Numbered from the stretch's first letter, positions 2,465 through 53,218 are shown. The stretch is 64,000 nt of DNA from an uncultured Gemmatimonadota bacterium (GCA_951812955.1 OX638340.1:1312001-1376000), one strand, 5' to 3'. Notes: generated by a model not told the origin, from the letters alone. Numbers and translations: made by a program.

Positions 2465-4402
2465 TCAATAACCGCTGTTCCCTAACCTGACACCGATGTA
2501 GCCGGTCATGCCCACGGTTCCGTATCCCAGGATTTCCTCGTACTCCGCATTGAGCAGATTGTCGATCCTTCCGAATAACTGGATGTTCGGTGTGACCTTC
2601 CAATTGGCGGCCACATTCACGATCCCGTAGCCATCCAGCGTTACCGGTGTGGCGGGCCAGGTCGAGAAGTCGTTGTCCCTTCGCTCCCCCGAAAAACGGA
2701 AACTCAGGTTCAGATCTACGCCCTGCCGTACTCGCTGATCAAGGACGATCCCGCCGCTGTGCCTCGGCCGTCTCAATAACTGCTCATCCGACTCATGGTC
2801 CTTCGAATCGGTCAAAGTATAGTAGGCACGCAGGGAAGTTCCCGCGATTCCCACATACCGTCCGGTCAACTCCAACCCCTTGCTTGTGGCCTTGAACACG
2901 TTCTTGTAACTGGATGTTTCGCTGTCCCACCCGACCATATTGTCGAAGGTATTGTCGAAATAGGTCACGCCGGCCACCAGCTTCTGATCGGCCAGGTACT
3001 GCTCCAGCCCCGCTTCCCAGCTCTTGCTGGTCCCGGCCTGGAGCGTGGAATCACCGAAGGAAGAATGCAGTTGAAACAGTGACGGCGCCTTGTAACCCGT
3101 ACCGTAGGCGCCTTTGATCCTGATTCCCGACGCTTCGAAGTACGCGTTTGGCGCGATGCTGTAGGTGACTTTAGAACCGTACCGGCTGTGATGATCGGCT
3201 CGCACGCCAAGGGTTGCAAACAGCGTATTGCCATACTGCAGCAACTCCTGCAGATAAGCACCGGTCATCCTTGCGGATCGGCGATCGAACTTGCTCGGGA
3301 ATCGGCCCCTTGATTCTGATTCTCCCTGTTCCGTTTCGGTTTCGGCGCCGAATACGAGCGTATTCCCGCCAGACAGCATCAGCGTGTTCTGCCAGTCTAT
3401 TTTGTGCAACCGCGCGTAGAACGTGGAGTTCGAAGCCGTTTCCTGGTTCTCGTCCACCGGATTGTCGTCTTCCCTGCTGTGATCGACGAGGCTATATCCC
3501 AGGGTCTGCTTCCATCGCTGCGACCACAATTCGAGGGTGGCCGAGGGACGGACAAACAGTTGCCTGGAGGAGTTTACCCGATTGGGATCGTCCCCATCGG
3601 GACCGGCTCCATTATCGATATCGGCCCGGCCATCCGTGAAACGAAACGTGAGATCGACCGAAGCATTCGCGGCGGGCGTCGCCCCGAAGCGTCCACCCAC
3701 CGTGGTGTTTCGATAGCCGTCTTCTTCCTGGTTCCCCAGGGCATTCGCTGAAATACCCCGAGCGTTCAGGAAGGAGCCGTCGATCGCATACTGGTAACTG
3801 TCCGTTCCGCCATTCAATCCCGCCCGGCTTCGAAACGTACCCAGGGCGCCGCCCTCGAAGGATGCCCCGATCTTTGGCTTACCCTCACCGCGCTTCGTAA
3901 TGATGTTCACGACCCCCGCGATGGCGTCCGACCCGTACAGTGTACTCTGGGACCCGTACAGCACCTCGATACGTTCTACCTGGTCGACGGTCAGATGCGC
4001 CGGGCTGTAGCCGCGACCCGGAGACATGGCATCGTTGACCTCGATTCCATCGATCAGAAACAGGGTGTAGGACGATTCGGCACCGCGAAGAAAAACAGAC
4101 GCGTTATTACCCGTGCCGCCAGCCTGTGCCATGCTCAAACCGCCCACGTCGCGCAGCACGCCGGCGACCGTGTTCTGGCTGCTGCGTTCGATATCGTCGG
4201 CGGTGATTACGGCGATCGAGCTCGACACCTGCCGCAAGGGTGTTTCGATTTTCGCAGCGGTTACGACAACGGCATCCAGAATGTATCTGGGTTCCTGGTC
4301 CACCGGGTCCTCCGGGTCCGGTGAATTCTGCGCAAATCCTGGCGCTGCGGACAGCAGGTAAAAACAGAGCACGGCTTTAATCGCATGTGGTATGTGTTTC
4401 AT
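2465..4402 (-). CDS. btuB: TonB-dependent outer-membrane receptor, BtuB-like (candidate vitamin B12 transporter)
   Basis: Signal peptide present. The plug region resembles E. coli BtuB (…VVTAAKIETPLRQVSSSIAVITADDIER…VFLRGAESSYTLFLIDGIEVND…). GGGAGG RBS before ATG 4402. Preceded by a cobalamin-riboswitch-like leader. Confidence 0.7.
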   Translation of the reverse strand: MKHIPHAIKAVLCFYLLSAAPGFAQNSPDPEDPVDQEPRYILDAVVVTAAKIETPLRQVSSSIAVITADDIERSSQNTVAGVLRDVGGLSMAQAGGTGNNASVFLRGAESSYTLFLIDGIEVNDAMSPGRGYSPAHLTVDQVERIEVLYGSQSTLYGSDAIAGVVNIITKRGEGKPKIGASFEGGALGTFRSRAGLNGGTDSYQYAIDGSFLNARGISANALGNQEEDGYRNTTVGGRFGATPAANASVDLTFRFTDGRADIDNGAGPDGDDPNRVNSSRQLFVRPSATLELWSQRWKQTLGYSLVDHSREDDNPVDENQETASNSTFYARLHKIDWQNTLMLSGGNTLVFGAETETEQGESESRGRFPSKFDRRSARMTGAYLQELLQYGNTLFATLGVRADHHSRYGSKVTYSIAPNAYFEASGIRIKGAYGTGYKAPSLFQLHSSFGDSTLQAGTSKSWEAGLEQYLADQKLVAGVTYFDNTFDNMVGWDSETSSYKNVFKATSKGLELTGRYVGIAGTSLRAYYTLTDSKDHESDEQLLRRPRHSGGIVLDQRVRQGVDLNLSFRFSGERRDNDFSTWPATPVTLDGYGIVNVAANWKVTPNIQLFGRIDNLLNAEYEEILGYGTVGMTGYIGVRLGNSGY

Positions 4403-5798: not shown

Positions 5799-6179
5799 CT
5801 ATGGCTTGTCGTCAAAGTACGGAGAGCAGTTTTGTTTCCAGGCCAGCCAGGTCCGACTGCCGTCGGAAGCCACAATGACGTGATCTTTGAACTTTTCCGG
5901 TATATTGGTGATTTTGCCTTGAGGGCCTTCGCCCGTTACGAACAGATCGTCCAGCGTCGTCCTTTCATGAAACAACCTGCTCTTTCCTTCGTGCACGGCG
6001 TCCTTTATTTCTGAAATCACCTGTCTGAATTCTTCTTCTATATCATCGGTTATTGTTTCCCTTTCCGACATTGTCCTTGTCTCCTTGTAGGCTTCCCACA
6101 ACCGCTTGACATGTTTGGCATACCTAAAATACTTCGCAAGCTCCAGAAGCAGTTCGAGGTATTCGGTCATGACCTGCAA
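5799..6179 (-). CDS. hypothetical protein (126 aa), co-oriented 15 nt upstream of EEP copy 1
   Basis: Clean charged, helical-looking ORF in a low-GC segment. TTG start at 6179, or ATG at 6170. No recognisable domain. Confidence 0.45.
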   Translation of the reverse strand: MQVMTEYLELLLELAKYFRYAKHVKRLWEAYKETRTMSERETITDDIEEEFRQVISEIKDAVHEGKSRLFHERTTLDDLFVTGEGPQGKITNIPEKFKDHVIVASDGSRTWLAWKQNCSPYFDDKP

Positions 6180-6285
6180 TGCCTGATTTAAAGGATACCC
6201 AATGCCGCCCTGAATTCAAAGGTATTCCCGATAAACATCCAAACAGCACCCTTGTACCTGGCATAGCCTCAGTTTTCTACCACAA

Positions 6286-7941
6286 TCACCACCTGGCGTT
6301 TAACTGCAAAATCCATCGTGTTTCGACGAGGGGAACCTTGAGTTGATCGTAGCGGGTCTGACGTGTCCGCGTATAACGCACCACGGTGGAAACGCCCGAT
6401 CCGACCGGTCCGTACAGCAGGATAACCCACCTATCGCGGCGGTTGGATCGAAATAGGGAGGTCGATTCCTCCGGCTCGGGTAACCCGGCCAACGTGTATT
6501 CCCACTGGGCGGACAGGCTGACACGGTCCCTGGACCGGTATCGCATGTACAATCGCAGATCGTGCGCGGGATTCAAACCGGACTGGCCGCGTCGCTCGTA
6601 GCGGGCCCGCCACTGGACCCGGGCGGGCAGCCGCCAGGCCATCTGACCTCGCCAGGATTCCAGCAGAACCGATCCATCAATTCTATGCGCATCCATCTCA
6701 CGGCGCCACACGCCCGAGAGTACGAGGCCGCCGTTCATTCTTCGGCGAAATCGGAAGGTGCTGCGCCGGTACAACTCCAAGTTGGTCAACCGGGGTTCAA
6801 CGCTCAGTTGCAGCGTGGTCCGGCGGTCCGGCCGCCAGCGCAGGAGCAGGCTCTGCCACGTCCGTTCGGACTTCTCGATGAACCGGGCATTCGGCTGACG
6901 GTGGATAGTCAGTCCCCCTTCCACGCGCTCCATGCTCCAGATCATGCCCCCCTGAACGGTCTGGTATCCCTCATCGTCGATGGCCATTTCACCGAACAGA
7001 TTCGTACCGCCGAAGAGCAAGTCCAGGTCCACGCCAGCACGTACGCGACCTTCCGTGTGAATGGCCGAGATACCGATCAGTCCACTGTTTCGCTTCCAGT
7101 CCAGGCGGCCCCCAGGTTCCCATTTTCCCGATGCGGTCCGTGAGAGGATCCCCGTCAGGCTATAACCTGGGCGGGCAATCCGCAGCGCCACGCCACGACG
7201 GGCGCCGGATACGTAGGTCGTTCTTACGGGTCTCAGTCCCCGGACACGGCGTTTCACGGACGCACTTAGACTGGCCGTCGAAGGCCGGATCGAATGACTG
7301 CGCCACACCAGTCCCTGGCCGAAATCCACTTCGTAGTATCCCAGGATCAACATGCGGGATGCATCCGCCTGACCCAGTTCCAGGTATCCCGACCGCCACC
7401 GGGTTTCACCGTCTCGATCCCGGCGTTCCCCCCGTCCGCCCAGTCTGAACGACCGTCCGAGTTCAATGTCCCCCTGCAGACCGAGGATGCCGTTTCCCGT
7501 CGCTTCCGGACGGTCGGTGCGGCTTCGCGACAGGCGCCCGCGACCCGCGGTTTTAAAGGTGCGGACACCGTCCGCCCGAATAAAGGGACTGATTCGGGAT
7601 ACAAGAGCCTCCGTGAAACCTGGAATTCGAACGAGTTCCCCCACGCTGGTGAAGGGGCCGAGCTTTTCACGCCAGGTGACGACGGCTCCGGCGAGCGCCG
7701 GCGTGATCCACGGCAGTTGTTCCAGCTCGGTCCGGCTGGCCCGGTTGATATCGAGCGGGTCGCGCCGCAAGGAGACCAGCAGCGCGATGTCCTCCGGATC
7801 GATGTCTGCTGCTTCCCGGTCGATCAGTGCATCAATGGAGTAGTCTGGTTCCTGCCCCGACCGTTCTTCAGGAGAGAAAATCATCATTGCTAGGTACACG
7901 GAGACCAGAATTCGCCATGCGTGGTACATGAACCGGCTCAT
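6286..7941 (-). CDS. hypothetical secreted/outer-membrane protein with N-terminal helix-hairpin-helix (ComEA-like) segment
   Basis: Signal/TM segment present. An HhH-like stretch (…INRASRTELEQLPWITPALAGAVVTWREKLGPFTSVGELVRIPGF…) is followed by a long R/W/Y-rich beta-rich region. Start overlaps the stop of the upstream gene. Confidence 0.45.
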   Translation of the reverse strand: MSRFMYHAWRILVSVYLAMMIFSPEERSGQEPDYSIDALIDREAADIDPEDIALLVSLRRDPLDINRASRTELEQLPWITPALAGAVVTWREKLGPFTSVGELVRIPGFTEALVSRISPFIRADGVRTFKTAGRGRLSRSRTDRPEATGNGILGLQGDIELGRSFRLGGRGERRDRDGETRWRSGYLELGQADASRMLILGYYEVDFGQGLVWRSHSIRPSTASLSASVKRRVRGLRPVRTTYVSGARRGVALRIARPGYSLTGILSRTASGKWEPGGRLDWKRNSGLIGISAIHTEGRVRAGVDLDLLFGGTNLFGEMAIDDEGYQTVQGGMIWSMERVEGGLTIHRQPNARFIEKSERTWQSLLLRWRPDRRTTLQLSVEPRLTNLELYRRSTFRFRRRMNGGLVLSGVWRREMDAHRIDGSVLLESWRGQMAWRLPARVQWRARYERRGQSGLNPAHDLRLYMRYRSRDRVSLSAQWEYTLAGLPEPEESTSLFRSNRRDRWVILLYGPVGSGVSTVVRYTRTRQTRYDQLKVPLVETRWILQLNARW

Positions 7942-7942
7942 T

Positions 7943-8752
7943 TCAGCCGAATTCCATGGTGACAGAAAACCGGTGCGTGATGCCTAGCAGGGAGTGAGAC
8001 GACAGGGCGTAATCCGTTTTCACGCGGCCCTTTTCCAGGCCCAGGCCAACATAGAACAGTGACGGATCGGTCGTCAGACCCGCCCGGATCGTTACAACCT
8101 CGGCCAGGTGAAACTCCTGCCCCACCCTCGTGGTGTAGCCGTGGCGGGGGTGGTGGTCGAACTGGAACGAAACCGTCAGGCGGTCTCCCGTCCTGCTCAG
8201 CCCCGCCTGGATGATACGCGGATTCTCAGTTGCCGTGCCGGACTCCTTGAGAAGTGCGACGGCATGGGCCATCGCGCCGAGACGAAGTTGATACGGGAGA
8301 TCTATGAGGACACCCGCGTCCAACGCGACGGCGGAAGCGCCTTCGTAGTTTTTGACTGCAAGGCTCAATCGGCGAAGCGTAAGTCCCGCATGGAATCTCC
8401 TGCTGATGGATCGTCCGTAGGAAAGGCCGAACACACCCTCCCGGTACAACGAGCTTCCGAGACCGTGGTAGAACAGGCCGATGTGGCCCAGGACGGTAGG
8501 TGCGACACCGGAGATGGCCACCTGGGCCAGCTCTTTCATGCCGAATAGCCGCGTGTAGTGGCTCGTCAATGCGAACCGGCCGACCTGGGGCGTACCGCCC
8601 GGATTGAGGAAGGCCGCTTCGGCGTCATCCGCGACGGCTACGAAAGCGCCCGCCATGCCGACCGGCCTCGCACCGGCAAAAACTGGTTCGAATGCGCTCC
8701 AGGCCGTACCTGGAGTCAATAGCAGTAACAACAGCGGTAGTATCCGTTTCAT
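7943..8752 (-). CDS. putative outer-membrane beta-barrel protein (FadL/PorV-like N-terminal motif)
   Basis: Signal peptide MKRILPLLLLLLTPGTAWS. Motif GMAGAFVAVADDAEAAFLNPGG. Ends with aromatic residues (…TMEFG). GGGAG RBS before ATG 8752. Confidence 0.45.
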   Translation of the reverse strand: MKRILPLLLLLLTPGTAWSAFEPVFAGARPVGMAGAFVAVADDAEAAFLNPGGTPQVGRFALTSHYTRLFGMKELAQVAISGVAPTVLGHIGLFYHGLGSSLYREGVFGLSYGRSISRRFHAGLTLRRLSLAVKNYEGASAVALDAGVLIDLPYQLRLGAMAHAVALLKESGTATENPRIIQAGLSRTGDRLTVSFQFDHHPRHGYTTRVGQEFHLAEVVTIRAGLTTDPSLFYVGLGLEKGRVKTDYALSSHSLLGITHRFSVTMEFG

Positions 8753-8920
8753 TTGGGCTCCCATCTCGAAATGATCGACTTGTTTCTCTATTCAAAGCGC
8801 CACACTTCATCAGTCGGAAGCACATCATGAAATCTCGTTTTAGACTGCCATTAATCGGCCTGAACCCGCTCCAATCTCGTATTGACTCCCACCCCTGATC
8901 CCGTATATTGTGGATGGTGC

Positions 8921-8994
8921 GCCCCAGTAGCTCAGTTGGACAGAGCATCGGACTTCTAATCCGAGGGTCGCAGGTTCGAATCCTGCCTGGGGTA
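8921..8994 (+). tRNA. tRNA-Arg (anticodon TCT)
   Basis: Cloverleaf read by eye: acceptor GCCCCAG/CTGGGGT, D-arm GCTC-AGTTGGACA-GAGC, anticodon arm TCGGA-CTTCTAA-TCCGA, T-arm GCAGG-TTCGAAT-CCTGC, discriminator A. CCA is not encoded. Confidence 0.8.
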
Positions 8995-9054
8995 TGGGAA
9001 CCGGGCTTTCAGCGTAGTCCGCGCAGTGGTTGCGCCGGTTCCCGGTTCCCCCGT

Positions 9055-9128
9055 GCGTCCGTAGCTCAGCTGGATAGAGCAACTGACTTCGGATCAGTAG
9101 GTCGGGGGTTCGAATCCCTCCGGGCGTA
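9055..9128 (+). tRNA. tRNA-Arg (anticodon TCG; anticodon assignment by eye)
   Basis: GCGTCCGTAGCTCAGCTGGATAGAGC… closely matches the bacterial tRNA-Arg backbone. Anticodon arm ACTGA-CTTCGGA-TCAGT, T-arm GGGGG-TTCGAAT-CCCTC. Acceptor stem has two G·U pairs. Confidence 0.7.
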
Positions 9129-39478: not shown

Positions 39479-39961
39479 ACTGAAATCCCTCCGGTGGGTA
39501 TCTCTTTCGATTGCACAAGTCAGATCTGATAATCCGTTGATCACCTTGTTAATATAGTCGTAATTCATTTGGTATTCTATTCGGTAATTTCGCTGAAGCG
39601 CACAGCGATCGGTTCGCCGATGGATTACATTATGTCGGAGGATTGTTCACCCGATTCGTCTGGAACGCTTTGGGTGGGCCGCGAAACCGCTTCACCCGGA
39701 ATGCTTCGAATGGGTCTCGGCTCCGCCGGACTGCACGGATGACGGAGTTTTGCAGAACATTTGGTCCTTCATTCCGTCGCCGTTACCGTACCCATCCCAA
39801 ATCCTTGACACCGCCATCCCATTCTCCTTACTTCCCGTTGTAAGTCCTGCCGCTGTGGTCCGGTCGGATCTGTGGCGTTGGAAGGTGGGACCAATTACGT
39901 AAGTCTTTCCTTTTGTTGAACGCACGGCATCGATCAGGTCGTACCGAAGGATAAGGTAGCT

Positions 39962-40246
39962 ATGCACGCTATAATCGAACAGAACCGCGCGGAAATCCTC
40001 GCCCTTGCCGAACGCCATGGCGTCGCCGACGTGCGCGTATTCGGGTCCATGGCGAGGGGCGACGCCGACGACGCCGGCGATGTCGACCTACTGGTGTCAC
40101 TGTCGCCTGGCAAAACAGGTCTTGCACTCGGAGCGCTGTTGATGGACGTGCAGGACCTCCTGCAACGACGTGTTGAAGTCTTAACGGAGAAAAGCCTTCA
40201 TCCTGCCCTCCGTGAAAACGTGTTGCGCGAGGCGCAGCCGTTATGA
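39962..40246 (+). CDS. mntA: MNT-type nucleotidyltransferase antitoxin, second copy
   Basis: About 80% identical to 34687-34971 by eye. …VRVFGSMARGDADDAGDVDLLVSL…. Confidence 0.75.
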   Translation: MHAIIEQNRAEILALAERHGVADVRVFGSMARGDADDAGDVDLLVSLSPGKTGLALGALLMDVQDLLQRRVEVLTEKSLHPALRENVLREAQPL

Positions 40247-40335
40247 AGTCAGACGCCTGGTCCGTAGAGTATCGCCCGAACACAACATTCCCGAATTAGC
40301 CAGGGCGATCGAGCGTATAGTTCATTCCACCTGAT
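40243..40335 (+). pseudogene. HepT toxin remnant (internal deletion)
   Basis: Starts MKSDA as in hepT at 34968, but terminates after 18 codons. The HepT C-terminus (…LARAIERIVHST*) is present about 40 nt later in another frame. About 90 codons are missing. Confidence 0.6.
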
Positions 40336-40390
40336 CCTTGAGAAGACCTCGCGGCCACGTGTCCTGCTGGCCGAGTGAAGGGTAATCATC

Positions 40391-40588
40391 ATGAATGTCA
40401 GTAAAGAAGAAAACACCAGACTCACTCCTTCGACAGTCAAACTCAAGCGGTTAATAGGGACCTCGCCTGCTCCTCGAATGTTGACGCCATACGAAATCAA
40501 GTTGCTGCGGCAAGCCGCGAAGGAAGTGGCCGAAGTTACGGAAGAAGTCCTCGCTGAGAAAGACAGTAGTAAGGAAGAAGGATGCTGA
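40391..40588 (+). CDS. small hypothetical protein (65 aa) translationally coupled to cas3
   Basis: GAAGGG RBS. The stop overlaps the cas3 ATG (ATGCTGA). Sequence …LTPYEIKLLRQAAKEVAEVTEEVLAEKD… is helical and charged. No recognisable family. Confidence 0.45.
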   Translation: MNVSKEENTRLTPSTVKLKRLIGTSPAPRMLTPYEIKLLRQAAKEVAEVTEEVLAEKDSSKEEGC

Positions 40589-43045
40589 CCTTCGAGCGGT
40601 TTTTCTCCACAGCGTTCGGTAAAGACGTTTGTCCTTTCGCCTATCAACAGGCTCTCGCAAAGCAGGCCTGGCCAGACGCGCTCATTGCTCCGACCGGCCT
40701 TGGCAAGACCGCCGCGGTGGTGCTTGGTTGGGCCTGGAAACACGCCGTAGTCGAATCTCCAACTCCACGTCGCCTCGTTTATTGCCTGCCTATGCGCACG
40801 CTCGTCGAGCAAACCGAGCGGAATGTCAGAGAATGGCTGCGTGAACTGGGCAAAGCAAATACGGACTGGAAATCACGCCTTCCGGACCCTGAAGCCGGAG
40901 TCCATGTCCTCATGGGCGGCATGGATGAGCCGCGCTGGTTTGAAACACCTGAACGACCGGCCATCCTGATCGGAACTCAAGATATGCTGATCAGCCGCGC
41001 CCTGATGCGGGGGTACGCCATGAGCCGCTTCCGCTGGCCAGTGGACTTCGCCTTGTTGCACAACGACGCGCAGTGGGTTTTTGACGAAGTGCAATTGATG
41101 GGAGCAGGCCTGGCGACCTCTACACAACTCGAAGGTTTTCGTCGTACGTTCGGAACGGAGATCCCTTCGTGCAGTCTCTGGGTGTCAGCGACCCTTCACC
41201 CGGACTGGCTACATACGGTTGATTTCCAGCAACGTCCTACGGTGTGGCGTGTTCCATGTGATTTCCCCGACGATATACATTCATCGCAAGTCCTCAAACT
41301 GATTAACGCGTGTAAGCCAATTCAGCCGTCGTCCGTCGCGCCGATGAGTGCCAAGAAGGCCGATCTGAACGCATACGCGACAGCGTTGGCGAAGGAAACC
41401 CGGAGTCTGCACCAAGAAAACAATACGACGCTTGTGGTACTCAATACAGTCGCCCGCGCCCAAGCCGTGCATAAAGCACTTCAGAAGATGGATGTTGCGC
41501 CTGCTTGCCTTGCTCTCATCCACTCGCGGTTTCGGCCTAAAGATCGCACCCGGCAGATGGACAAGTTGCCGCAAACCGGGGAAACAAAAAAACTGATCGT
41601 AGTCGCGACGCAGGCGATTGAAGCAGGTATCGATCTATCAGCGGCGGTCCTGCTCACCGAACTCGCGCCTCCTTCGTCCCTTACCCAGCGGTTCGGTCGG
41701 GTAAATCGCTACGGTGAGTTGAACGATTCCGGTGGCGGGACGGTCCGCTGGATAGATATCATCGGAGGCGACCTCGGTGATTCGTTGGCGGCTCCGTATG
41801 AGATTAACGAACTCAAAATCGGGCGCGAGCGGATTGCCGCGTTAAAGGACGCTCGGCCCTCTAATCTCGTGCCGCCCGCATCAGACGACTGCGCCTATCG
41901 GGGTGTGATACGATCCAGGGATATGCTGGACCTATACGACACCGATCCGGATTTGACCGGCTTTGATGTCGATATCGCTCCTTACGTCCGCGATGCTGAA
42001 GATACCGATATTCGAGTTTTCTGGCGCGATTTCGACGTGCAGTCTGGACCAGAGGACCAGACTGCACCCATGCGGGACGAGCTTTGTGCGGTTCCGATTG
42101 GGCGCGCGCGTAACTGGCTTAGGGATGTCAGAAAGAAGGAAGGGCAGCGGGTATTTCGCATAGACCCGCAGGCACGAGCTAATGGGAAGGGTAGCGTTCC
42201 GACTTGGACCGCGTTCCGAGAGGAACCGTGGCCGGGTTTGGTGTTGATGGTTCATGCGAGTGCTGGGGGTTATGCACCGGACACGGGGTTTGATCAGGGT
42301 CTAAAAACAGCAGTCGAGCCTGTGAAGCTAGGAGAGGAACAGCAGACGGCAGACGAGTCGAACGACGGCGATTCCGACAGCGAGCAGAGCAGGTGCGTGG
42401 AACTGACGGATCATCTGGACCACGTGGCTTTTGAAGCCAGATACCTATGCGATGGCCTCGACGTTTGTGAAGCTTGGAAAGCCACAATCCTCCAGGCAGC
42501 GTACTGGCACGACCTCGGTAAAGCACACCCTGAGTTTCAGGCGCGAATGGTTGCAAGTAACACGGAGGCCGACCCACCACCAGAAGGGTTGCTAGCCAAG
42601 GCTCCGAAGTACGACCGCACGAAAGGACGTGCATATTTCCGGCACGAACTTGCGTCTGCACTAGCATTTCTCACACAAGCAGGCTGGGTACGCAAGGCCG
42701 ATCTTGTTGCGTACCTGATAGCCGCCCATCACGGCAAGGTACGCCTGAACTTGCGTCCCCTACCAGCCGAAAGTCGGGTAATGGGGGAGGATGGACGGCG
42801 TTTTGCTCGCGGCGTGTGGGAGGGAGACGAGATACCGTTGGTTAGTTTGGGCAATGGGGAAACATGGACAGGGGGGCCACTCGCACTATCCGTGATGGAG
42901 TTAGGCGAGCATCCGGAAACTGGGGCAAGTTGGACCGAGCGTACGCGAAATTTGCTTTCCCAGTACGGTCCTTTTCAGCTCGCTTGGTTGGAGGCACTTG
43001 TACGTATCGCCGACTGGCGGGCATCAGCAAAAGAAGAACGAGGTC

Positions 43046-43062
<17 letters not shown>
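40582..43062 (+). CDS. cas3: Cas3 helicase with C-terminal HD nuclease domain (type I-G architecture)
   Basis: Helicase motif I APTGLGKT and motif II VFDEVQ. C-terminal HD motifs (…AYWHDLGKAHPEFQ…, …IAAHHGKVR…). Confidence 0.85.
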
Positions 43063-46598
<3,536 letters not shown>

Positions 46599-46605
46599 GT
46601 CTCGA

Positions 46606-48240
46606 ATGTTTGCACTTACTTTCACCTTTCCTTTGGGCCGCTATCACGCAACGCCGTGGGGGCGCCATGTCAACGAAGCCGATGTCGCTTGGCCGCCAGA
46701 GCCTTGGCGCATTCTTCGTGCGCTCGTCGCTACCTACTGGCGCAAAGGCGACCGGGTACGCTGGTCCGAGGACACACTCGCCCGTCTAGTAGACGCGCTA
46801 GCCCAGGATGCGCCGATCTATCACTTGCCCCCAGGCGTGATCCACGCACATACCCGGCATTACATGCCCACACCTAAAATGACGCTCGTCTTCGACGCCT
46901 TTGCCCACTTGTCTAAAGACGAACAGATCGTAGCGGCTTGGCCAGAACTCGAATTGGACGTCGAACTATTTGATTTGGCGGCTGATCTCGCAGAGGGGCT
47001 CGGCTACCTGGGGCGTGCCGAGAGTTGGGTTGAATGCGGAACGATAACCGACTGGAACCAAGATGTGGCAAACTGCCATCCTGTGGGCCAAAATGGGACC
47101 GCCCACGGGGAGATAGTGCGAGTGCTCACACCGCTCAGTGCTCAGGATTATATGGTGGAGCGTACGCGCCTGTTGGAGGAAGTTGACGATGCAGAGCGAG
47201 ACCGCACCGCTGCTTCCGGCAAGAGACCTCCTACCCCCAGAGCCCTTGAAAGGGCACGCAACAAAGCGTTCGGGCCGACCCTTCCTGATCGTCTGGTCGA
47301 AGCCTTGATGCTCGATACGGCCGATTACCAAAAATACCGTTGGAACCGACCGCCAGCCTCACGTGAGATTGTTTATACACGTCCGCCTCTGTCCCCTGTT
47401 CCTCGCCGTGCCCGGATTCGTGCAACAGTTGATGACCGCAGACAATTCACCGTAGCGCGCTTTCTTTTGGCCGGCCGTCCCCGACCTCGTATTGAGGATG
47501 CGGTCAAGATCGGTGAACTCATGCGGCTTGCCGCGCTTTCCAAGTTTGGTTGGGAGGACAAGAGACCCAGAGCACCGTCGGTGATATCAGGCCGGGGTTC
47601 TGATGGCCGACCATTACGCAACGGCCAGCATTCGCATGCGTTTTGGTTGCCCGAGGACGCCGATGGCGATGGCTGGATTGACCATATAACGGTTTACGCA
47701 GAGGAAGGTTTCGATGTTTCAGTGCGCGAGAAGCTGGATCGACTGACCCGTTTGTGGGTCGGTGGAGACGATTCCGGTGGAGAGGAAGGAGATAAAGAGA
47801 CCGGTCGCCAAGAGTGGCGACTGGCCTTGGAGGGCTTTGGCCGCCCGGAGGACTTTGCGGACACATCAAGGCTATTTAGCTGTTCAGATGAATGGGAAAG
47901 TGTAACACCTTTTTTGGCGTCTGGTCACTTAAAAAAGGCCGGGTATGAAGGCGAGATACATCGGCTTTGGAAGCGCAGACGAGTCACATCTGGTTCGCAT
48001 ACTGAGCCTGTACAGGTCGAAATCTTGCGCCACATCGAGATTCACGGTACTCTCCGTAGAGCAGTGCATTTTCATCGATTCCGTTCACGGGGACGAGAGA
48101 AGCAACCCGACGCGCAAGGGGCCTTGCTGCGCCTGAGTTTTAACGAGCCAGTTACAGGACCCTTAGCTCTTGGATATGCCTGCCATTTTGGTCTTGGAAT
48201 GTTCGCACGCCCAATCCTAGACGCAAAATCGGAACAATGA
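46606..48240 (+). CDS. csb2: Csb2 (Cas5-Cas6 fusion-type subunit, type I-G)
   Basis: N-terminal …LGRYHATPWGRHVNEADVAWPPEPWRILRALV… matches the conserved Csb2/GSU0054 motif. 544 aa. Confidence 0.7.
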   Translation: MFALTFTFPLGRYHATPWGRHVNEADVAWPPEPWRILRALVATYWRKGDRVRWSEDTLARLVDALAQDAPIYHLPPGVIHAHTRHYMPTPKMTLVFDAFAHLSKDEQIVAAWPELELDVELFDLAADLAEGLGYLGRAESWVECGTITDWNQDVANCHPVGQNGTAHGEIVRVLTPLSAQDYMVERTRLLEEVDDAERDRTAASGKRPPTPRALERARNKAFGPTLPDRLVEALMLDTADYQKYRWNRPPASREIVYTRPPLSPVPRRARIRATVDDRRQFTVARFLLAGRPRPRIEDAVKIGELMRLAALSKFGWEDKRPRAPSVISGRGSDGRPLRNGQHSHAFWLPEDADGDGWIDHITVYAEEGFDVSVREKLDRLTRLWVGGDDSGGEEGDKETGRQEWRLALEGFGRPEDFADTSRLFSCSDEWESVTPFLASGHLKKAGYEGEIHRLWKRRRVTSGSHTEPVQVEILRHIEIHGTLRRAVHFHRFRSRGREKQPDAQGALLRLSFNEPVTGPLALGYACHFGLGMFARPILDAKSEQ

Positions 48241-48444: not shown

Positions 48445-50157
48445 ATGAACCACATCCACCAACTCACGCTACCAATACCTCCGCCCCCAGTCGACGCGAA
48501 TACGCCATTGGTCCCAGCGCGCATGGTCAACGAATGGGTCTATTGCCCGCGACTGGCCTACCTGGAATGGGTTGAAGGAGAGTGGGCGGAGACGGGAGAC
48601 ACCGCCGAGGGACGGCGTACACACGTAAGGGTCGACGAAGGTGGCGGCCGTCTGCCCGGACCGGAAGAACTGGATGATGAGATGGCCCGCGCCCGGTCCG
48701 TCACGCTTTCGTCGGATCGTCTCGGCGTAATCGCCAAGATAGACGTCGTGGAAGCCGAAGAAGGAATCGTCACGCCCGTGGATTTCAAGAAAGGCAAGCG
48801 TCCCCATGTCGCCACTGGCGCCTACGAGCCCGAACGCGTCCAGATCTGCACGCAGGCCATGATCCTGGAGGACAATGGTTACAGAGTGGAGCGCGGTATG
48901 CTCTGGTACGCCGGGTCGCGTGAGCGCGTCCCGGTGATGCTTGACGATGAACTTCGATCCCTGACCCTGGCGGCAATCAGAGAATTGCGCGTCGCCGCGG
49001 CTGATGGCCGTCGGCCACCGCCTCTGGAAAACAGCCCGAAGTGCCCCCGCTGTGCCCTGGCGGGGATCTGTCTGCCCGACGAAACCAACCTGTTCCGCAA
49101 AGGGACTGCACCACGCCCGCTGAACCCATCGGATGATCCGGCCCTGCCGCTCTACGTACAGGAACCGGGGGCGCGACTGCGAAAGAGCGGTGAGCGCTTG
49201 GTGGTGGAAATCAAGGAAGAATCCGTAGAGGTACCCATAATCGACGTTTCCCAGGTCGCTCTGTTCGGCCCCGTCTCGGTGACCACACCGGCTCTGCACG
49301 CGCTGATGAACGCGGAGATTCCGGTATCGTGGTTTTCCACGGGAGGCTGGTTCCTCGGCCATACAGTAGGAACAGGGCATGGAAACGTGGCCGTTCGCGA
49401 AGCGCAATACCGCGTAGCCTTCGATAAAGGCGCTCGCCTTGCCTTCGCGCGCGATCTCGTGGCGGCTAAGGCGCGTAACGCCCGTACGATGTTGCGTCGC
49501 AACTGGCGCGTCAATATGGACGCGGAAATCAGGGATGAAGCCCTAGTCCGGCTCAGGGGAGTCGTGCGCCGCATCTCCCGCGCCACGGACGAAAGCCAAC
49601 TGCTGGGCCTGGAAGGCGAGGCCGCCGCAGTGTATTTCAACTGCTTCGAGCACATGCTTGCTAAGGATCTGGACGGCGGCGCGACGGGGTTCTCCTTCAC
49701 CAAGCGCAATCGGCGGCCTCCCACGGATCCGGTGAACGCGCTCCTGTCGCTGGCCTACGCTTTGTTGACGCGGGTATTCACTACGACCATCTCGGCGACG
49801 GGGCTCGACCCCTACATGGGCCTCTACCACCATACGCGCCACGGGCGCCCGGCGCTGTCCCTCGATCTAATGGAACCGTTCAGACCTATTGTCGCCGACT
49901 CCTGCGTTATTCAAGCCATCAACAACGGCGAAGTAAAGCTGGCCGATTTCGTGTTCAACGGGGCTGCTTGTTCGCTGAAGCCTGCTGGTCGCAAGTCCTT
50001 CATCGCCGCGTTCGAGCGGCGCATGGAGCAGGAGACCACACATCCGCTTTTCGGCTATCGCGTTTCCATGCGGCGACTTATCGAGGTACAGTCCCGATTG
50101 CTCGCCCGGCATTTTCAGGGAGAGATCGTCTCTTACCCTCATTATCTTCCCCGGTAG
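48445..50157 (+). CDS. cas4-cas1: Cas4-Cas1 fusion protein
   Basis: N-terminal Cas4 domain with a Cys cluster (CPRLAYLEW … CPRCALAGICLPDE). C-terminal Cas1 region. 570 aa. Confidence 0.8.
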   Translation: MNHIHQLTLPIPPPPVDANTPLVPARMVNEWVYCPRLAYLEWVEGEWAETGDTAEGRRTHVRVDEGGGRLPGPEELDDEMARARSVTLSSDRLGVIAKIDVVEAEEGIVTPVDFKKGKRPHVATGAYEPERVQICTQAMILEDNGYRVERGMLWYAGSRERVPVMLDDELRSLTLAAIRELRVAAADGRRPPPLENSPKCPRCALAGICLPDETNLFRKGTAPRPLNPSDDPALPLYVQEPGARLRKSGERLVVEIKEESVEVPIIDVSQVALFGPVSVTTPALHALMNAEIPVSWFSTGGWFLGHTVGTGHGNVAVREAQYRVAFDKGARLAFARDLVAAKARNARTMLRRNWRVNMDAEIRDEALVRLRGVVRRISRATDESQLLGLEGEAAAVYFNCFEHMLAKDLDGGATGFSFTKRNRRPPTDPVNALLSLAYALLTRVFTTTISATGLDPYMGLYHHTRHGRPALSLDLMEPFRPIVADSCVIQAINNGEVKLADFVFNGAACSLKPAGRKSFIAAFERRMEQETTHPLFGYRVSMRRLIEVQSRLLARHFQGEIVSYPHYLPR

Positions 50158-50162
50158 CGACT

Positions 50163-50456
50163 ATGGCCAACGAACGTCTCTACATCGTCGCCTACGACAT
50201 ATCCGAGCCAAAGCGATGGCGGCGCGTGTACAAGCTGATGAAAGGCTATGGGCACTGGTTGCAGTTGTCGATTTTCCAGTGCAGGCTCACGGCCCGGCGA
50301 CGCGCGGAAATGACCGCTCGTCTGGAGGAATCGATCGATCTGTCGGAGGACCACATTCTGATCGTGGACATGGGTCCCGCGGACAAAGTGGATCCATTGG
50401 TAGAAAGCCTGGGCAAGGCATATGAAGCGCCGACTCGAAAAGCCACCGTCGTGTAG
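50163..50456 (+). CDS. cas2: Cas2
   Basis: …RLYIVAYDISEPKRWRRVYKLMKGYGHWLQLSIFQCRL… is Cas2-like. 97 aa. Starts 6 nt after the cas4-cas1 stop. Confidence 0.85.
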   Translation: MANERLYIVAYDISEPKRWRRVYKLMKGYGHWLQLSIFQCRLTARRRAEMTARLEESIDLSEDHILIVDMGPADKVDPLVESLGKAYEAPTRKATVV

Positions 50457-50665: not shown

Positions 50666-53218
50666 ATTTCCGGGGCTGCGCAGCCCCGGCCTCATTGAAG
50701 CGCCGCCATATCGATCCGGATAGAAGGTTGTCCGTTCGATTTCCGGGGCTGCGCAGCCCCGGCCTCATTGAAGCACCATATGCCGGCGCGGTGATTGGGT
50801 ATTTGCGGCACGATTTCCGGGGCTGCGCAGCCCCGGCCTCATTGAAGCATCCGTCATCATAAAACCCCCGTAAATGGCCATAGGGATTTCCGGGGCTGCG
50901 CAGCCCCGGCCTCATTGAAGCCGTCGTCGCGATGGCGGTGTTCGGTGGCAACCTGTGATTTCCGGGGCTGCGCAGCCCCGGCCTCATTGAAGCCACCAGA
51001 ATACCCATGCGGCCGATAACGAGGTGCTGCTTATTTCCGGGGCTGCGCAGCCCCGGCCTCATTGAAGCCGATCCTTCCGCGAAGTGTCCGGCCTGCACCG
51101 CTCCATTTCCGGGGCTGCGCAGCCCCGGCCTCATTGAAGCATGAGTTGACGCTCCGAGATACCCAGCAGCGTCGCGAGATTTCCGGGGCTGCGCAGCCCC
51201 GGCCTCATTGAAGCCGGAAGATGTTGCTCCCCTGGCCGTCGGTGAAGAAGTTATTTCCGGGGCTGCGCAGCCCCGGCCTCATTGAAGCCGGAAGATGTTG
51301 CTCCCCTGGCCGTCGGTGAAGAAGTTATTTCCGGGGCTGCGCAGCCCCGGCCTCATTGAAGCGAGAAGATCTCCCCGGATAACGTGGACGACCCCACCGG
51401 CATTTCCGGGGCTGCGCAGCCCCGGCCTCATTGAAGCCGGTTGGCCTCCGGGTCCGGCTCGGTTTCGTGCGGTTGATTTCCGGGGCTGCGCAGCCCCGGC
51501 CTCATTGAAGCTTGGAAGCCATGATGGCCTTGGTGCCCAGGGCGAGCGCCATTTCCGGGGCTGCGCAGCCCCGGCCTCATTGAAGCTAGGCCTCCTCGCT
51601 GGCGAATCCCATCTTGTACCACTATTTCCGGGGCTGCGCAGCCCCGGCCTCATTGAAGCTCGTACACGTGGGCGGTGGTCAGCACCACCTTGGAACCGGA
51701 TTTCCGGGGCTGCGCAGCCCCGGCCTCATTGAAGCGTCGGTTTCGTCCTCGGTGTCGCGGTGACGACGCTCTATTTCCGGGGCTGCGCAGCCCCGGCCTC
51801 ATTGAAGCATCAAACACACCCTTCAAGCGTAAACATAGGCCCTGGATTTCCGGGGCTGCGCAGCCCCGGCCTCATTGAAGCCCATCAGTGTGGTCGACTG
51901 CTGCCTGCGTGTGCTGGAGAAATTTCCGGGGCTGCGCAGCCCCGGCCTCATTGAAGCCCATCAGTGTGGTCGACTGCTGCCTGCGTGTGCTGGAGAAATT
52001 TCCGGGGCTGCGCAGCCCCGGCCTCATTGAAGCATGCACATCTCGAAGTCACAGGACCAGACACAGGTGACGATTTCCGGGGCTGCGCAGCCCCGGCCTC
52101 ATTGAAGCCACGGAAGGCAGCCAGGGTCGCACCGCTGGCACCCAGATTTCCGGGGCTGCGCAGCCCCGGCCTCATTGAAGCCAAGCAATCGAACGCAAGC
52201 ACAAGCGGACGCTCGACCATTTCCGGGGCTGCGCAGCCCCGGCCTCATTGAAGCTAAGGGTATTGTCCAGGACGATGACCTGAATGAATATATTTCCGGG
52301 GCTGCGCAGCCCCGGCCTCATTGAAGCCTGTGCAAAACGCGCGGTACTTGAAATTGGCCCGTGTCATTTCCGGGGCTGCGCAGCCCCGGCCTCATTGAAG
52401 CGTGATTGATCAATTTCGAGATTAACCGTTATTTCCTCCATTTCCGGGGCTGCGCAGCCCCGGCCTCATTGAAGCAGGAACACGTGGAAGAGGTAGGAGC
52501 AGACGCGAAACCATTTCCGGGGCTGCGCAGCCCCGGCCTCATTGAAGCGAAGCTCCTGTTGAGTCTGTGAACGACTGGACGGGTTAATTTCCGGGGCTGC
52601 GCAGCCCCGGCCTCATTGAAGCGATGCAATCAGAAACCTCCTTCATCGTCGCATCCTGATATTTCCGGGGCTGCGCAGCCCCGGCCTCATTGAAGCGATT
52701 CATCGTTGGCGTTGTCGTCCACCTCCTCGGCGAGGTATTTCCGGGGCTGCGCAGCCCCGGCCTCATTGAAGCCAAGTTGACAGACATAGGAATCCAGCCT
52801 TACGCGTCCACATTTCCGGGGCTGCGCAGCCCCGGCCTCATTGAAGCTCTGAAAAAGACCTGTTGCTCCACCCCATCGAGGACGTATTTCCGGGGCTGCG
52901 CAGCCCCGGCCTCATTGAAGCGCCTTGTCGCGGATAGCCCTTGCCTGCTCCTCCAAAGCCATTTCCGGGGCTGCGCAGCCCCGGCCTCATTGAAGCCTCC
53001 AACACCAGCAACAGCACGGCAGGGTCCCTGGGCATTTCCGGGCTGCGCAGCCCCGGCCTCATTGAAGCGAATCTCCCTCCAGCGGGTTGCAGTCCTTCAG
53101 GTCCTGGGTTTCCGGGGCCGCACGGCCCCGGCCTCATTGAAGCGAGATCCCCCCGGACCCTGGTAAGGCGTCGGCGGGCAGTGTTTCCGGGGCCGCTCGG
53201 CCCCGGCCTCATTGAAGC
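50666..53218 (+). CRISPR. CRISPR array of about 35 repeats (36-bp ATTTCCGGGGCTGCGCAGCCCCGGCCTCATTGAAGC) with 34 spacers of 36-40 bp. Leader is 50457-50665. A further degenerate partial repeat lies near 53255.
   Basis: Repeat units were counted directly. The palindromic core is CCGGGGCTGCGCAGCCCCGG. The 3' end …ATTGAAGC is typical of type I-G/I-U repeats. Pristine repeats are leader-proximal (next to cas2). The last three are degenerate: one has a single-G deletion at 53034, and two read GTTTCCGGGGCCGC(A/T)CGGCCCC at 53108 and 53183. Confidence 0.95.

Follow-up and report, generated by a model that had tools for sequence, protein, structure and literature searches.

The type I-G locus and the small ORF upstream of cas3

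The DNA analyzed here (hereafter, the window) is a stretch of 64,000 nt from the genome of an uncultured Gemmatimonadota bacterium. It contains a type I-G CRISPR-Cas locus with a complete gene set and an adjacent array, as judged by the presence of Cas3g with a C-terminal HD domain, Csx17/Cas8g or Csb3, Csb1/Cas7g, Csb2, a Cas4-Cas1 fusion, Cas2, and an array (Table 1). The matches to TIGR02621, TIGR04113, TIGR02570, TIGR02165, and NF049935 were all above the NCBIfam cut-offs. According to a published description, type I-G lacks cas11, and the C-terminal domain of Cas8g is Cas11-like (PMC9638904). The type I-G system of T. sulfidiphilus has been assembled from synthetic genes for Cas8g, Csb2, Cas7, and Cas3 and has been shown to interfere (PMC9638904).

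The cas3g gene is preceded by a small ORF on the plus strand, which extends from an ATG at 40391 to a TGA at 40586–40588 and encodes the 65-aa protein MNVSKEENTRLTPSTVKLKRLIGTSPAPRMLTPYEIKLLRQAAKEVAEVTEEVLAEKDSSKEEGC. In a previous interpretation of this DNA, made from the sequence alone (the sequence-only reading), the ORF had been given its own ribosome-binding site. This agrees with the putative Shine-Dalgarno-like motif read 8 nt upstream of the ATG, and the same start region is present at another locus, L013 (gtgaaaggtaatcattATG). Because the ATG of cas3 is located at 40582, the small ORF and cas3 share 7 nt, ATGCTGA. The overlap with the cas3 start had been recognized correctly before, but the stop codon of the small ORF, which had been placed inside the start codon, lies just after it. 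The 11 nt directly before the cas3 ATG (40571–40581) are purine-rich. As had also been stated in the sequence-only reading, the protein belongs to no recognized family: searches against Pfam, NCBIfam, PHROGs, and PADLOC yielded no match.

A scan of the region from 39800 to 40800 for sigma-70 promoters revealed no site, and the only terminator-like match in this region was at chance level. Neither a promoter-like sequence nor a palindromic operator was detected upstream of the ORF in the window. A 187-codon ORF on the minus strand (40249–40812) was rejected as a real gene, since it matches no family and overlaps the verified start of cas3.

Several further features of the region are worth recording. 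Upstream of the small ORF, at 39962–40246, there is a gene for an MntA-like nucleotidyltransferase (NF047752, PDC-S09 models), which is followed by short ORF fragments, one at 40243–40299 and one reading ...ARAIERIVHST* that ends at about 40334. The fragments resemble a HEPN partner from which a large internal part has been deleted; the MNT/HEPN pair directly before the cas operon would thus be a decayed one. The array includes two pairs of adjacent identical spacers, at 51179–51370 and 51846–52033, in which repeat-spacer units are duplicated with 98–100% identity. Directly after the array follows a 1383-codon ORF (53341–57492) with numerous tandem repeats of 72 nt (24 aa), whose pattern, GPVPPELGRLANL..L.L..N.LT, looks like a leucine-rich repeat.

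Table 1. Positions of the features in the window and at other loci referred to in the text (L, locus).
Locus	Feature	Position (nt)	Strand	Evidence or remark
Window	SD-like motif GAAGGG (putative)	40377..40382	+	8 nt 5' of the small-ORF ATG; read from the sequence
Window	small ORF, 65 aa	40391..40588	+	standalone (class D) member; family otherwise housed in the +1 frame of KfrC-type PRTase genes
Window	coupling junction	40571..40588	+	purine-rich AAGGAAGAAGG, cas3 ATG at 40582, small-ORF TGA at 40586–40588 (ATGCTGA)
Window	cas3g, helicase with C-terminal HD nuclease domain	40582..43062	+	TIGR02621, 748 bits; Pfam DEAD, Cas3-like_C_2, Cas3_HD
Window	csx17/cas8g1, large subunit	42998..45652	+	TIGR04113, 611 bits
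Window	csb1/cas7g	45642..46598	+	PF09617, TIGR02570
Window	csb2 (Cas5-Cas6 fusion), short form without PRTase insertion	46606..48240	+	TIGR02165; aligned with long csb2 forms
Window	cas4g-cas1g fusion	48445..50157	+	NF049935, 766 bits
Window	cas2	50163..50456	+	PF09827, E = 3e-18
Window	CRISPR array, ~33 copies of the 36-nt repeat ATTTCCGGGGCTGCGCAGCCCCGGCCTCATTGAAGC	50666..53036	+	
L017, L023, L024, L026, L027, L031, L043, L047/L048, L049, L059, L088, L099, L128	long csb2 (~800 aa) with KfrC-N-type PRTase-like insertion	6698–9094 (L024)		
L007	two small-ORF copies	6004–6204 and 7666–7872		
L036	two small-ORF copies	7668–8165		
L045	two small-ORF copies	6794–7000 and 7941–8135		
L051	two small-ORF copies	7953–8156 and 8804–8992		
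L037, L040, L041	two small-ORF copies			
L142 (CP002151.1, plasmid PB5)	kfrC with open +1 frame	2977–4323		IncP-1
L143 (NC_017508.1, pHP-42)	kfrC with open +1 frame			IncP-1

Conservation and genomic distribution of the small protein

A word-seeded search identified 35 homologues of 60–96 aa, with E-values from 7e-27 to 6e-7. They share the core LTPS..KL.RLIGTSPAPRMLTPYEI.LLRQ (also written GTSPAPRMLTPYEI.LLRQ), in which nine columns are invariant. An exhaustive profile search extended the family to 199 clusters at 50% identity; the matches listed had lengths of 30–233 aa, so that no Cas3-sized protein, and thus no fusion of the small ORF to Cas3, was among them. The general form of the protein has the sequence RMLTPSEI, and the subfamily associated with type I-G has RMLTPYEI.

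To obtain a genome set, one genome per species was scanned with the peptide RMLTPYEI, which resulted in 53 loci. This ascertainment biases the set; the controls were the exclusion of the anchor peptide and a second set that was ascertained via the PRTase (see below). The 53 loci span about 10 phyla, and the carriers include Latescibacterota, Binatia, Gemmatimonadota, Gammaproteobacteria, Alphaproteobacteria, Acidobacteriota, Rhodothermales, Nitrospirales, and Desulfuromonadales. Type I-G cas genes were present in the fetched DNA of 44 of the 53 loci. The ORF is found within about 100 nt upstream of cas3 in 13 loci, often with stop/start coupling, upstream of csb1 as the first gene of a permuted operon in two, just downstream of csb2 in three, and inside csb2 in 11. 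Recurrence upstream of type I-G cas3 genes, which had been proposed in the sequence-only reading as a check of the gene, was thus observed. At four close relatives of the window locus (L009, L014, L022, and L046) the small ORF and cas3 are separated by a gap of 5–12 nt, e.g., TAGggggtATG, and at L144 they overlap by ATGA. Among the neighborhoods of six homologues, the ORF directly precedes a type I-G cas3 in three genomes, and in the other three it is located after csb3, near a cmr operon 1.6 kb from cas3, and alone, respectively. A genome related to that with the lone copy retains a cas3 fragment at the site.

The ORF is not universal in type I-G. Among five Csx17-type loci that were chosen by Csb1 similarity only (62–78% identity), it was present in two and missing from three, and it was not among the four synthetic genes from which the T. 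sulfidiphilus system was reconstituted (PMC9638904). A search of plasmids with Csb1 (tblastn), intended to provide an independent sample of type I-G loci, yielded no match. No homologue was found with the window protein (tblastn) in 50,697 phage and 72,556 plasmid records, and a member of the broad family also had no match in plasmids (tblastn).

Copies of the small ORF persist at loci at which the cas operon appears to have been deleted (L002 and L025). At these cas-less loci (L025:8200–8486 and L002:6190–6210), the 3' end of the small ORF enters the last 11–16 nt of the type I-G repeat (...CCTCATTGAAGC), and L025 retains an array of three repeats just downstream of the small ORF. It seems that the whole cas operon between the small ORF and the array was deleted. 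L001 and L002 have a common flanking synteny, and a cas3 fragment is present only in L001.

At several type I-G loci the small ORF is present twice (Table 1). The copies are arranged in tandem, or one of them stands alone and the other is embedded in a PRTase gene. Furthermore, many of the carriers among L009–L061 are MAGs, with bin names (APA_, RHO, COS, IRC) that resemble those of marine sponge-symbiont surveys. The occurrence in about 10 phyla at 55–75% protein identity suggests that the type I-G locus has spread horizontally, together with the small gene, within the sponge habitat.

Homologues of the small ORF overlap the 3' ends of PRTase-like genes

Elsewhere, the last ~50 codons of a KfrC-N-type phosphoribosyltransferase (PRTase)-like gene also encode the small protein, in the +1 frame. 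Since the same protein is encoded out of frame within the end of the PRTase gene, an unannotated overlapping gene has been recruited, and is kept, by CRISPR loci. We distinguish four classes of copies: inside a PRTase insertion of csb2 (class A), inside a standalone PRTase gene of ~260 aa beside cas3 or csb2 (class B), inside PRTase fragments (class C), and the small-ORF segment only, in which the PRTase frame is diverged and contains stop codons (class D).

In class A, an uninterrupted csb2 of ~800 aa with a PRTase-like insertion (Table 1) holds the ORF in 10 genome loci, always in the +1 frame. This relation is constant for GC contents of the loci from 53 to 71%. An alignment of the long Csb2 proteins with the short Csb2 of the window revealed that an insertion of ~300 aa is located between the N- and the C-terminal parts of Csb2 and that it carries a PRPP-loop-like motif, (V/I)VDDFIGQGGTLANLRGW. 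The similarity of the PRTase host genes, including the insertion, to PF00156 is weak, 27.0 bits for L082 at a cut-off of 26.3, and below the threshold in the type I-G copies. The PRTase host genes match phrog_22413 over their full length and are ~45% identical to the N-terminal domain of KfrC over 230 aa. Standalone PRTase genes of ~260–300 aa with the small ORF were found at L034, L038, L028, L044, L035, L056, L051, and L144. The ATG of the small ORF is located inside the PRTase motif ELRxKHG, and its stop codon usually 37–52 nt beyond that of the PRTase gene; in the PRTase frame, the overlap stretch reads EQLHELRQKHGPDFEKWWREHFGHAFDCLTQSEARYLARSPDVDTIRDRLAAA.

The window belongs to class D. 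Its PRTase frame has a stop codon at 40402–40404 and is diverged, a 3' segment of ~60 codons survives, and the copy overlaps no host gene, only 7 nt of cas3. A tblastn search with the PRTase across the window gave no match, so that membership in the KfrC-N-type PRTase family (phrog_22413) applies to the host genes elsewhere, not to the window. Two loci are intermediate: L144 has an intact PRTase gene with the embedded ORF, ATGA-coupled to cas3, and at L145 the PRTase gene is frameshifted and the small ORF is intact.

An unbiased set of genes was obtained by scanning metagenomes with an alignment of PRTase residues 1–165 only, which resulted in 80 loci. A match to the small-ORF HMM directly downstream was found for 74 of the 80, and most of the other six end at a contig edge. 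Of the 63 non-identical complete PRTase genes, 62 have an open +1 frame of at least 55 codons, and 5 have such a +2 frame. All 63 +1 ORFs have an ATG, which stems mostly from the K-H-G codons (AAA CAT GG), and a Shine-Dalgarno-like 4-mer is present upstream of 35 of them, vs. a background of 0.15. The diversity at third positions of the PRTase frame is 0.61–0.74 for codons 1–180 and declines to 0.44, 0.43, 0.46, and 0.27 in the overlap. For sequences with the majority residue, the synonymous codon diversity is 0.635 outside and 0.281 inside the overlap (Mann-Whitney p = 1e-12), and the diversity of fourfold degenerate sites is 0.717 and 0.276, respectively (p = 4e-8). The suppression of synonymous variation in the overlap is the classical signature of a second coding frame. 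The PRTase genes exhibit two features of an overprinted gene: the +1 frame is open far more often than the control frame, and synonymous variation of the host is suppressed. The possibility that the embedded copies are an artefact of open frames in high-GC DNA was rejected, because the +1 relation is constant at 53–71% GC and is also found in the metagenome loci with 42–61% GC.

Type I-G cas genes are located near the PRTase plus small-ORF module in 6 of the 80 metagenome loci (L063, L088, and L099 are the three of the six on 12-kb fetched loci), and the neighborhoods of the others are unrelated. As most of the modules are thus found away from cas genes, the primary role of the family is not CRISPR-specific.

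Selection acts on the standalone copies of the small gene

For the class D copies (n = 29), the diversity at the three codon positions of the small frame is 0.296, 0.195, and 0.441. When the eight anchor codons are removed, the values are 0.350, 0.243, and 0.462, and the diversity at position 3 is higher than at position 2 (p = 2e-5). In the same copies, pN/pS is 0.42 for the small frame vs. 1.53 for the former PRTase frame, and stop codons interrupt the small frame in 1 of 29 copies, the PRTase frame in 10 of 29, and the third frame in 29 of 29. These three results indicate that selection acts on the small protein alone. The sequence-only reading had named a lack of conservation in combination with non-coding statistics as the evidence that would speak against the ORF; instead, it is conserved and has a periodicity of the coding type.

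The class D proteins cluster apart from those of classes A–C. Their genes are located upstream of cas3 in both Csx17-type and Csb3-type loci and upstream of csb1 in two permuted operons. This pattern indicates a long-term persistence as the first cistron of type I-G operons.

Predicted structure of the small protein

AlphaFold2 predicts two helices, residues 13–22 and 33–63 (mean pLDDT 79), which are connected by the conserved loop GTSPAPRML. A Foldseek search of the PDB with the model returned only insignificant matches to helical hairpins (best E = 2), and a profile search of the PDB sequences yielded nothing below E = 0.4. The 65-aa protein with two predicted helices is thus without significant sequence or fold similarity to any solved structure.

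These results do not favor two functional proposals that had been made for the ORF. A role as an Aca-like or other DNA-binding regulator is not backed by the model, which contains two predicted helices and neither an HTH nor an RHH domain, nor by any fold or sequence match in the PDB; for an Aca-like factor, it also counts that no homologue was found in the phage and plasmid records. The motif LTPYEI.LLRQ, which had been regarded as a possible short DNA-binding helix, would form, according to the model, the N-cap and the start of the long second helix, and the ancestral location of this family is the +1 frame of the PRTase gene. Moreover, no acr-like gene adjoins the small ORF; its neighbors are cas3 and the MntA-like gene.

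Origin and possible function of the small gene

At the level of sequence comparison, the results show that the ORF at 40391–40588 is protein-coding, conserved, linked to type I-G, translationally coupled to cas3g, and derived from an overlapping gene. Our confidence in the reality and the origin of the small gene is high, and in its mechanism it is low. We propose, with a probability of about 0.6, that it is a gene of the type I-G operon for a small two-helix protein that originated in an overlap with a PRTase gene, and that the protein is likely to be a partner of Cas3 or the effector. The family arose, or is at least housed ancestrally, as a gene that overlaps the 3' end of a KfrC-N-type PRTase gene. 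This two-in-one module was taken up by type I-G loci at three places: within csb2, as a gene of its own directly before cas3, or directly after csb2. In a lineage that includes the window, the PRTase part was lost and only the small gene was kept, as the first cistron of the operon. The original partner of the small protein could have been the PRTase-like domain, by analogy with Rz/Rz1 (see below). Judging from gene order, coupling, and selection, the small protein may today be a binding partner, i.e., an adaptor or modulator, of Cas3 or the type I-G effector, and it may be made in a fixed proportion to Cas3. A partner of Cas3 or the effector appears most likely because purifying selection persists without the PRTase and because the gene is coupled stop-to-start with cas3. 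A new accessory component, which was also among the suggestions of the sequence-only reading, remains plausible. More tentatively, and at less than even odds, a stronger version can be put forward: that the protein is a hidden Cas3- or Cascade-binding subunit that remained functional after the loss of the PRTase, that a second, hitherto unrecognized protein is encoded in the +1 frame at the 3' end of KfrC-type PRTase genes, perhaps also of plasmid kfrC, and that type I-G recruited this two-protein module, even with an insertion of the PRTase into Csb2.

Four alternatives were considered. According to the first, which we regard as unlikely and yet as deserving some weight, the small protein is an orphan antitoxin or inhibitor of the PRTase-like protein, left behind after the loss of the PRTase and without a role in CRISPR; it might be kept as protection against incoming PRTase modules, or only transiently. 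The near universal presence of the small ORF in the PRTase family (62 of 63) would fit this explanation, as would the variable neighborhoods and the location of most modules outside CRISPR loci, the copies without cas genes or PRTase at L002, L025, L053, and L055, and the decayed PRTase beside an intact small ORF at L145. However, the standalone copies form their own diverged clusters with a synonymous diversity of ~0.46 and occupy the 5' end of both Csx17-type and Csb3-type operons, which argues for a long cas-linked rather than a transient persistence. In addition, KfrC-type PRTases have no known toxicity (PMC8124265), and the small ORF matches no toxin-antitoxin or defense family (PADLOC, NCBIfam). 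In the window, neither a PRTase nor a toxin adjoins the small ORF; the MntA-like gene upstream is part of a different pair, MNT/HEPN, which is apparently decayed.

The second alternative, a small nucleic-acid-binding regulator, corresponds to the regulator or Aca-like factor of the sequence-only reading. The protein would control its own operon, or it would bind RNA as a dimer that forms a four-helix bundle; we regard this as rather doubtful. The standalone form is indeed the first gene of the operon, irrespective of whether cas3 or csb1 follows, and the protein is small, charged, and predicted to be helical. These properties have to be weighed against the lack of an HTH or RHH domain and of any match in Pfam, NCBIfam, or the PDB, the positions in the middle of the operon inside csb2 (11 loci) and after csb2 (three loci), the failure to find phage or plasmid homologues or an acr-like neighbor, and the failure to detect a promoter-like or palindromic operator sequence upstream in the window.

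Third, the ORF could be a leader, a relic of the PRTase 3' end of which the translation matters and the product does not, with ribosomes that reinitiate at the ATG of cas3. The stop/start overlap or a gap of at most 12 nt to cas3 in many loci is in accord with such a device, and in class B the distance between the PRTase stop and the cas3 start is spanned by the small ORF. Nevertheless, this explanation is improbable: purifying selection acts on the amino acid sequence (diversity at position 2 < position 1 < position 3, pN/pS 0.42), the core is invariant across about 10 phyla, copies occur without an adjoining downstream cas gene (L008, L028, L030, and L032), and a pure coupling device would not conserve 30 residues.

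The last alternative, that the small ORF is not a gene, can be dismissed as highly improbable. The conservation would then be due to an element of the DNA or RNA, namely a promoter, the cas3 5' UTR, or a PRTase pseudogene in decay, or the real gene would be the 187-codon ORF on the minus strand. In favor of this, the segment shares homology with the 3' end of the PRTase gene, and gene callers would normally ignore such an ORF inside it. However, only the small frame has a 3-nt periodicity, and stop codons interrupt it in 1 of 29 copies, vs. 10 and 29 of 29 for the other frames. Of 63 PRTase genes, 62 have an open +1 frame and 5 an open +2 frame, the ATG is conserved, and Shine-Dalgarno-like motifs are enriched. 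The minus-strand ORF, for its part, matches no family and overlaps the verified start of cas3.

If the proposed partnership with Cas3 or the effector is correct, the small protein would be a new accessory subunit or regulator of a type I effector, and its gene would be among the clearest long same-strand overlapping genes that are conserved across bacterial phyla. Among the type I subtypes, I-G is the least understood, and it has been described as minimal, without a gene for a small subunit. If a large subset of type I-G loci has an accessory or regulatory factor that has been missed so far, the conserved small protein with its translational coupling to cas3 is a concrete candidate, and the PRTase-like domain in Csb2 is another; both matter for the reconstitution and engineering of type I-G. 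Beyond CRISPR, a same-strand overlapping gene of ~150–170 nt is kept in 62 of the 63 sampled members of a widespread KfrC-related PRTase family. The lineages in which the host gene is dead and the overprinted gene alone survives represent a natural "experiment". Such cases are rare in bacteria and are systematically missed by annotation, and they bear on the birth of genes and their later independence.

Relation to known systems

Full-text searches of the literature, with incomplete coverage, revealed no account of a small gene at the cas3 of type I-G (I-U), nor of Csb2 with a PRTase domain or kfrC-type genes with a second ORF. Two known arrangements come closest: Cas11 inside cas8, which is in frame, larger, and not known in type I-G, and the same-strand embedded genes of phages.

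A well-known example of the latter is the spanin gene pair Rz/Rz1 of phage lambda, in which a small gene is embedded in a larger one on the same strand, in the +1 frame, and with its own start, and the products act together. The arrangement described here is alike in that a larger gene on the same strand contains all or most of the small one, which is read in the +1 frame and has a putative start site of its own. That the products of Rz and Rz1 act together is the analogy behind the proposal of a partner protein. However, there is no relation in sequence, fold, or function; the host is a PRTase-like gene or a csb2 insertion, and the small ORF extends past the host stop and is an independent gene at many loci, including the window.

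Aca proteins are HTH repressors that are encoded beside acr genes on phages and other mobile elements. The small protein resembles them in being small and encoded next to CRISPR-related genes, but it has no HTH, no acr neighbor, and no homologues in the phage and plasmid records at the sensitivity of tblastn, and it is encoded in a chromosomal cas operon.

Cas11 small subunits are translated from inside cas8 in types I-B, I-C, and I-D (bioRxiv 10.1101/2020.04.18.045682; cited in PMC9638904). Cas11 and the protein described here are both small helical type I proteins that are hidden in a larger cas gene and missed by annotation. Small subunits of the Cas11 kind were taken here as helical bundles of roughly at least 100 aa that form the minor filament of Cascade. 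Cas11 results from in-frame internal initiation, its sequence is contained in that of the large subunit, and its helical bundle is larger. The small protein, in contrast, is read out of frame with its host, which is csb2 or a PRTase gene and not cas8; it has 57–75 aa and two predicted helices and is unrelated in sequence.

In KfrC of the IncP-1alpha (RK2) and IncU (RA3) plasmids, the N-terminal ~240 residues form a PRT type I domain (PMC8124265). KfrC differs by a C-terminal extension and works together with KfrA and KorB in plasmid maintenance. At the homologous position of kfrC in two IncP-1 plasmids (Table 1), the +1 frame is open for 65–92 codons and reads ...PRPLTQSEI.SLR..., a weak match to the small-protein profile (E = 0.013–0.059). 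Thus, the +1 frame of kfrC may encode an unannotated second product.
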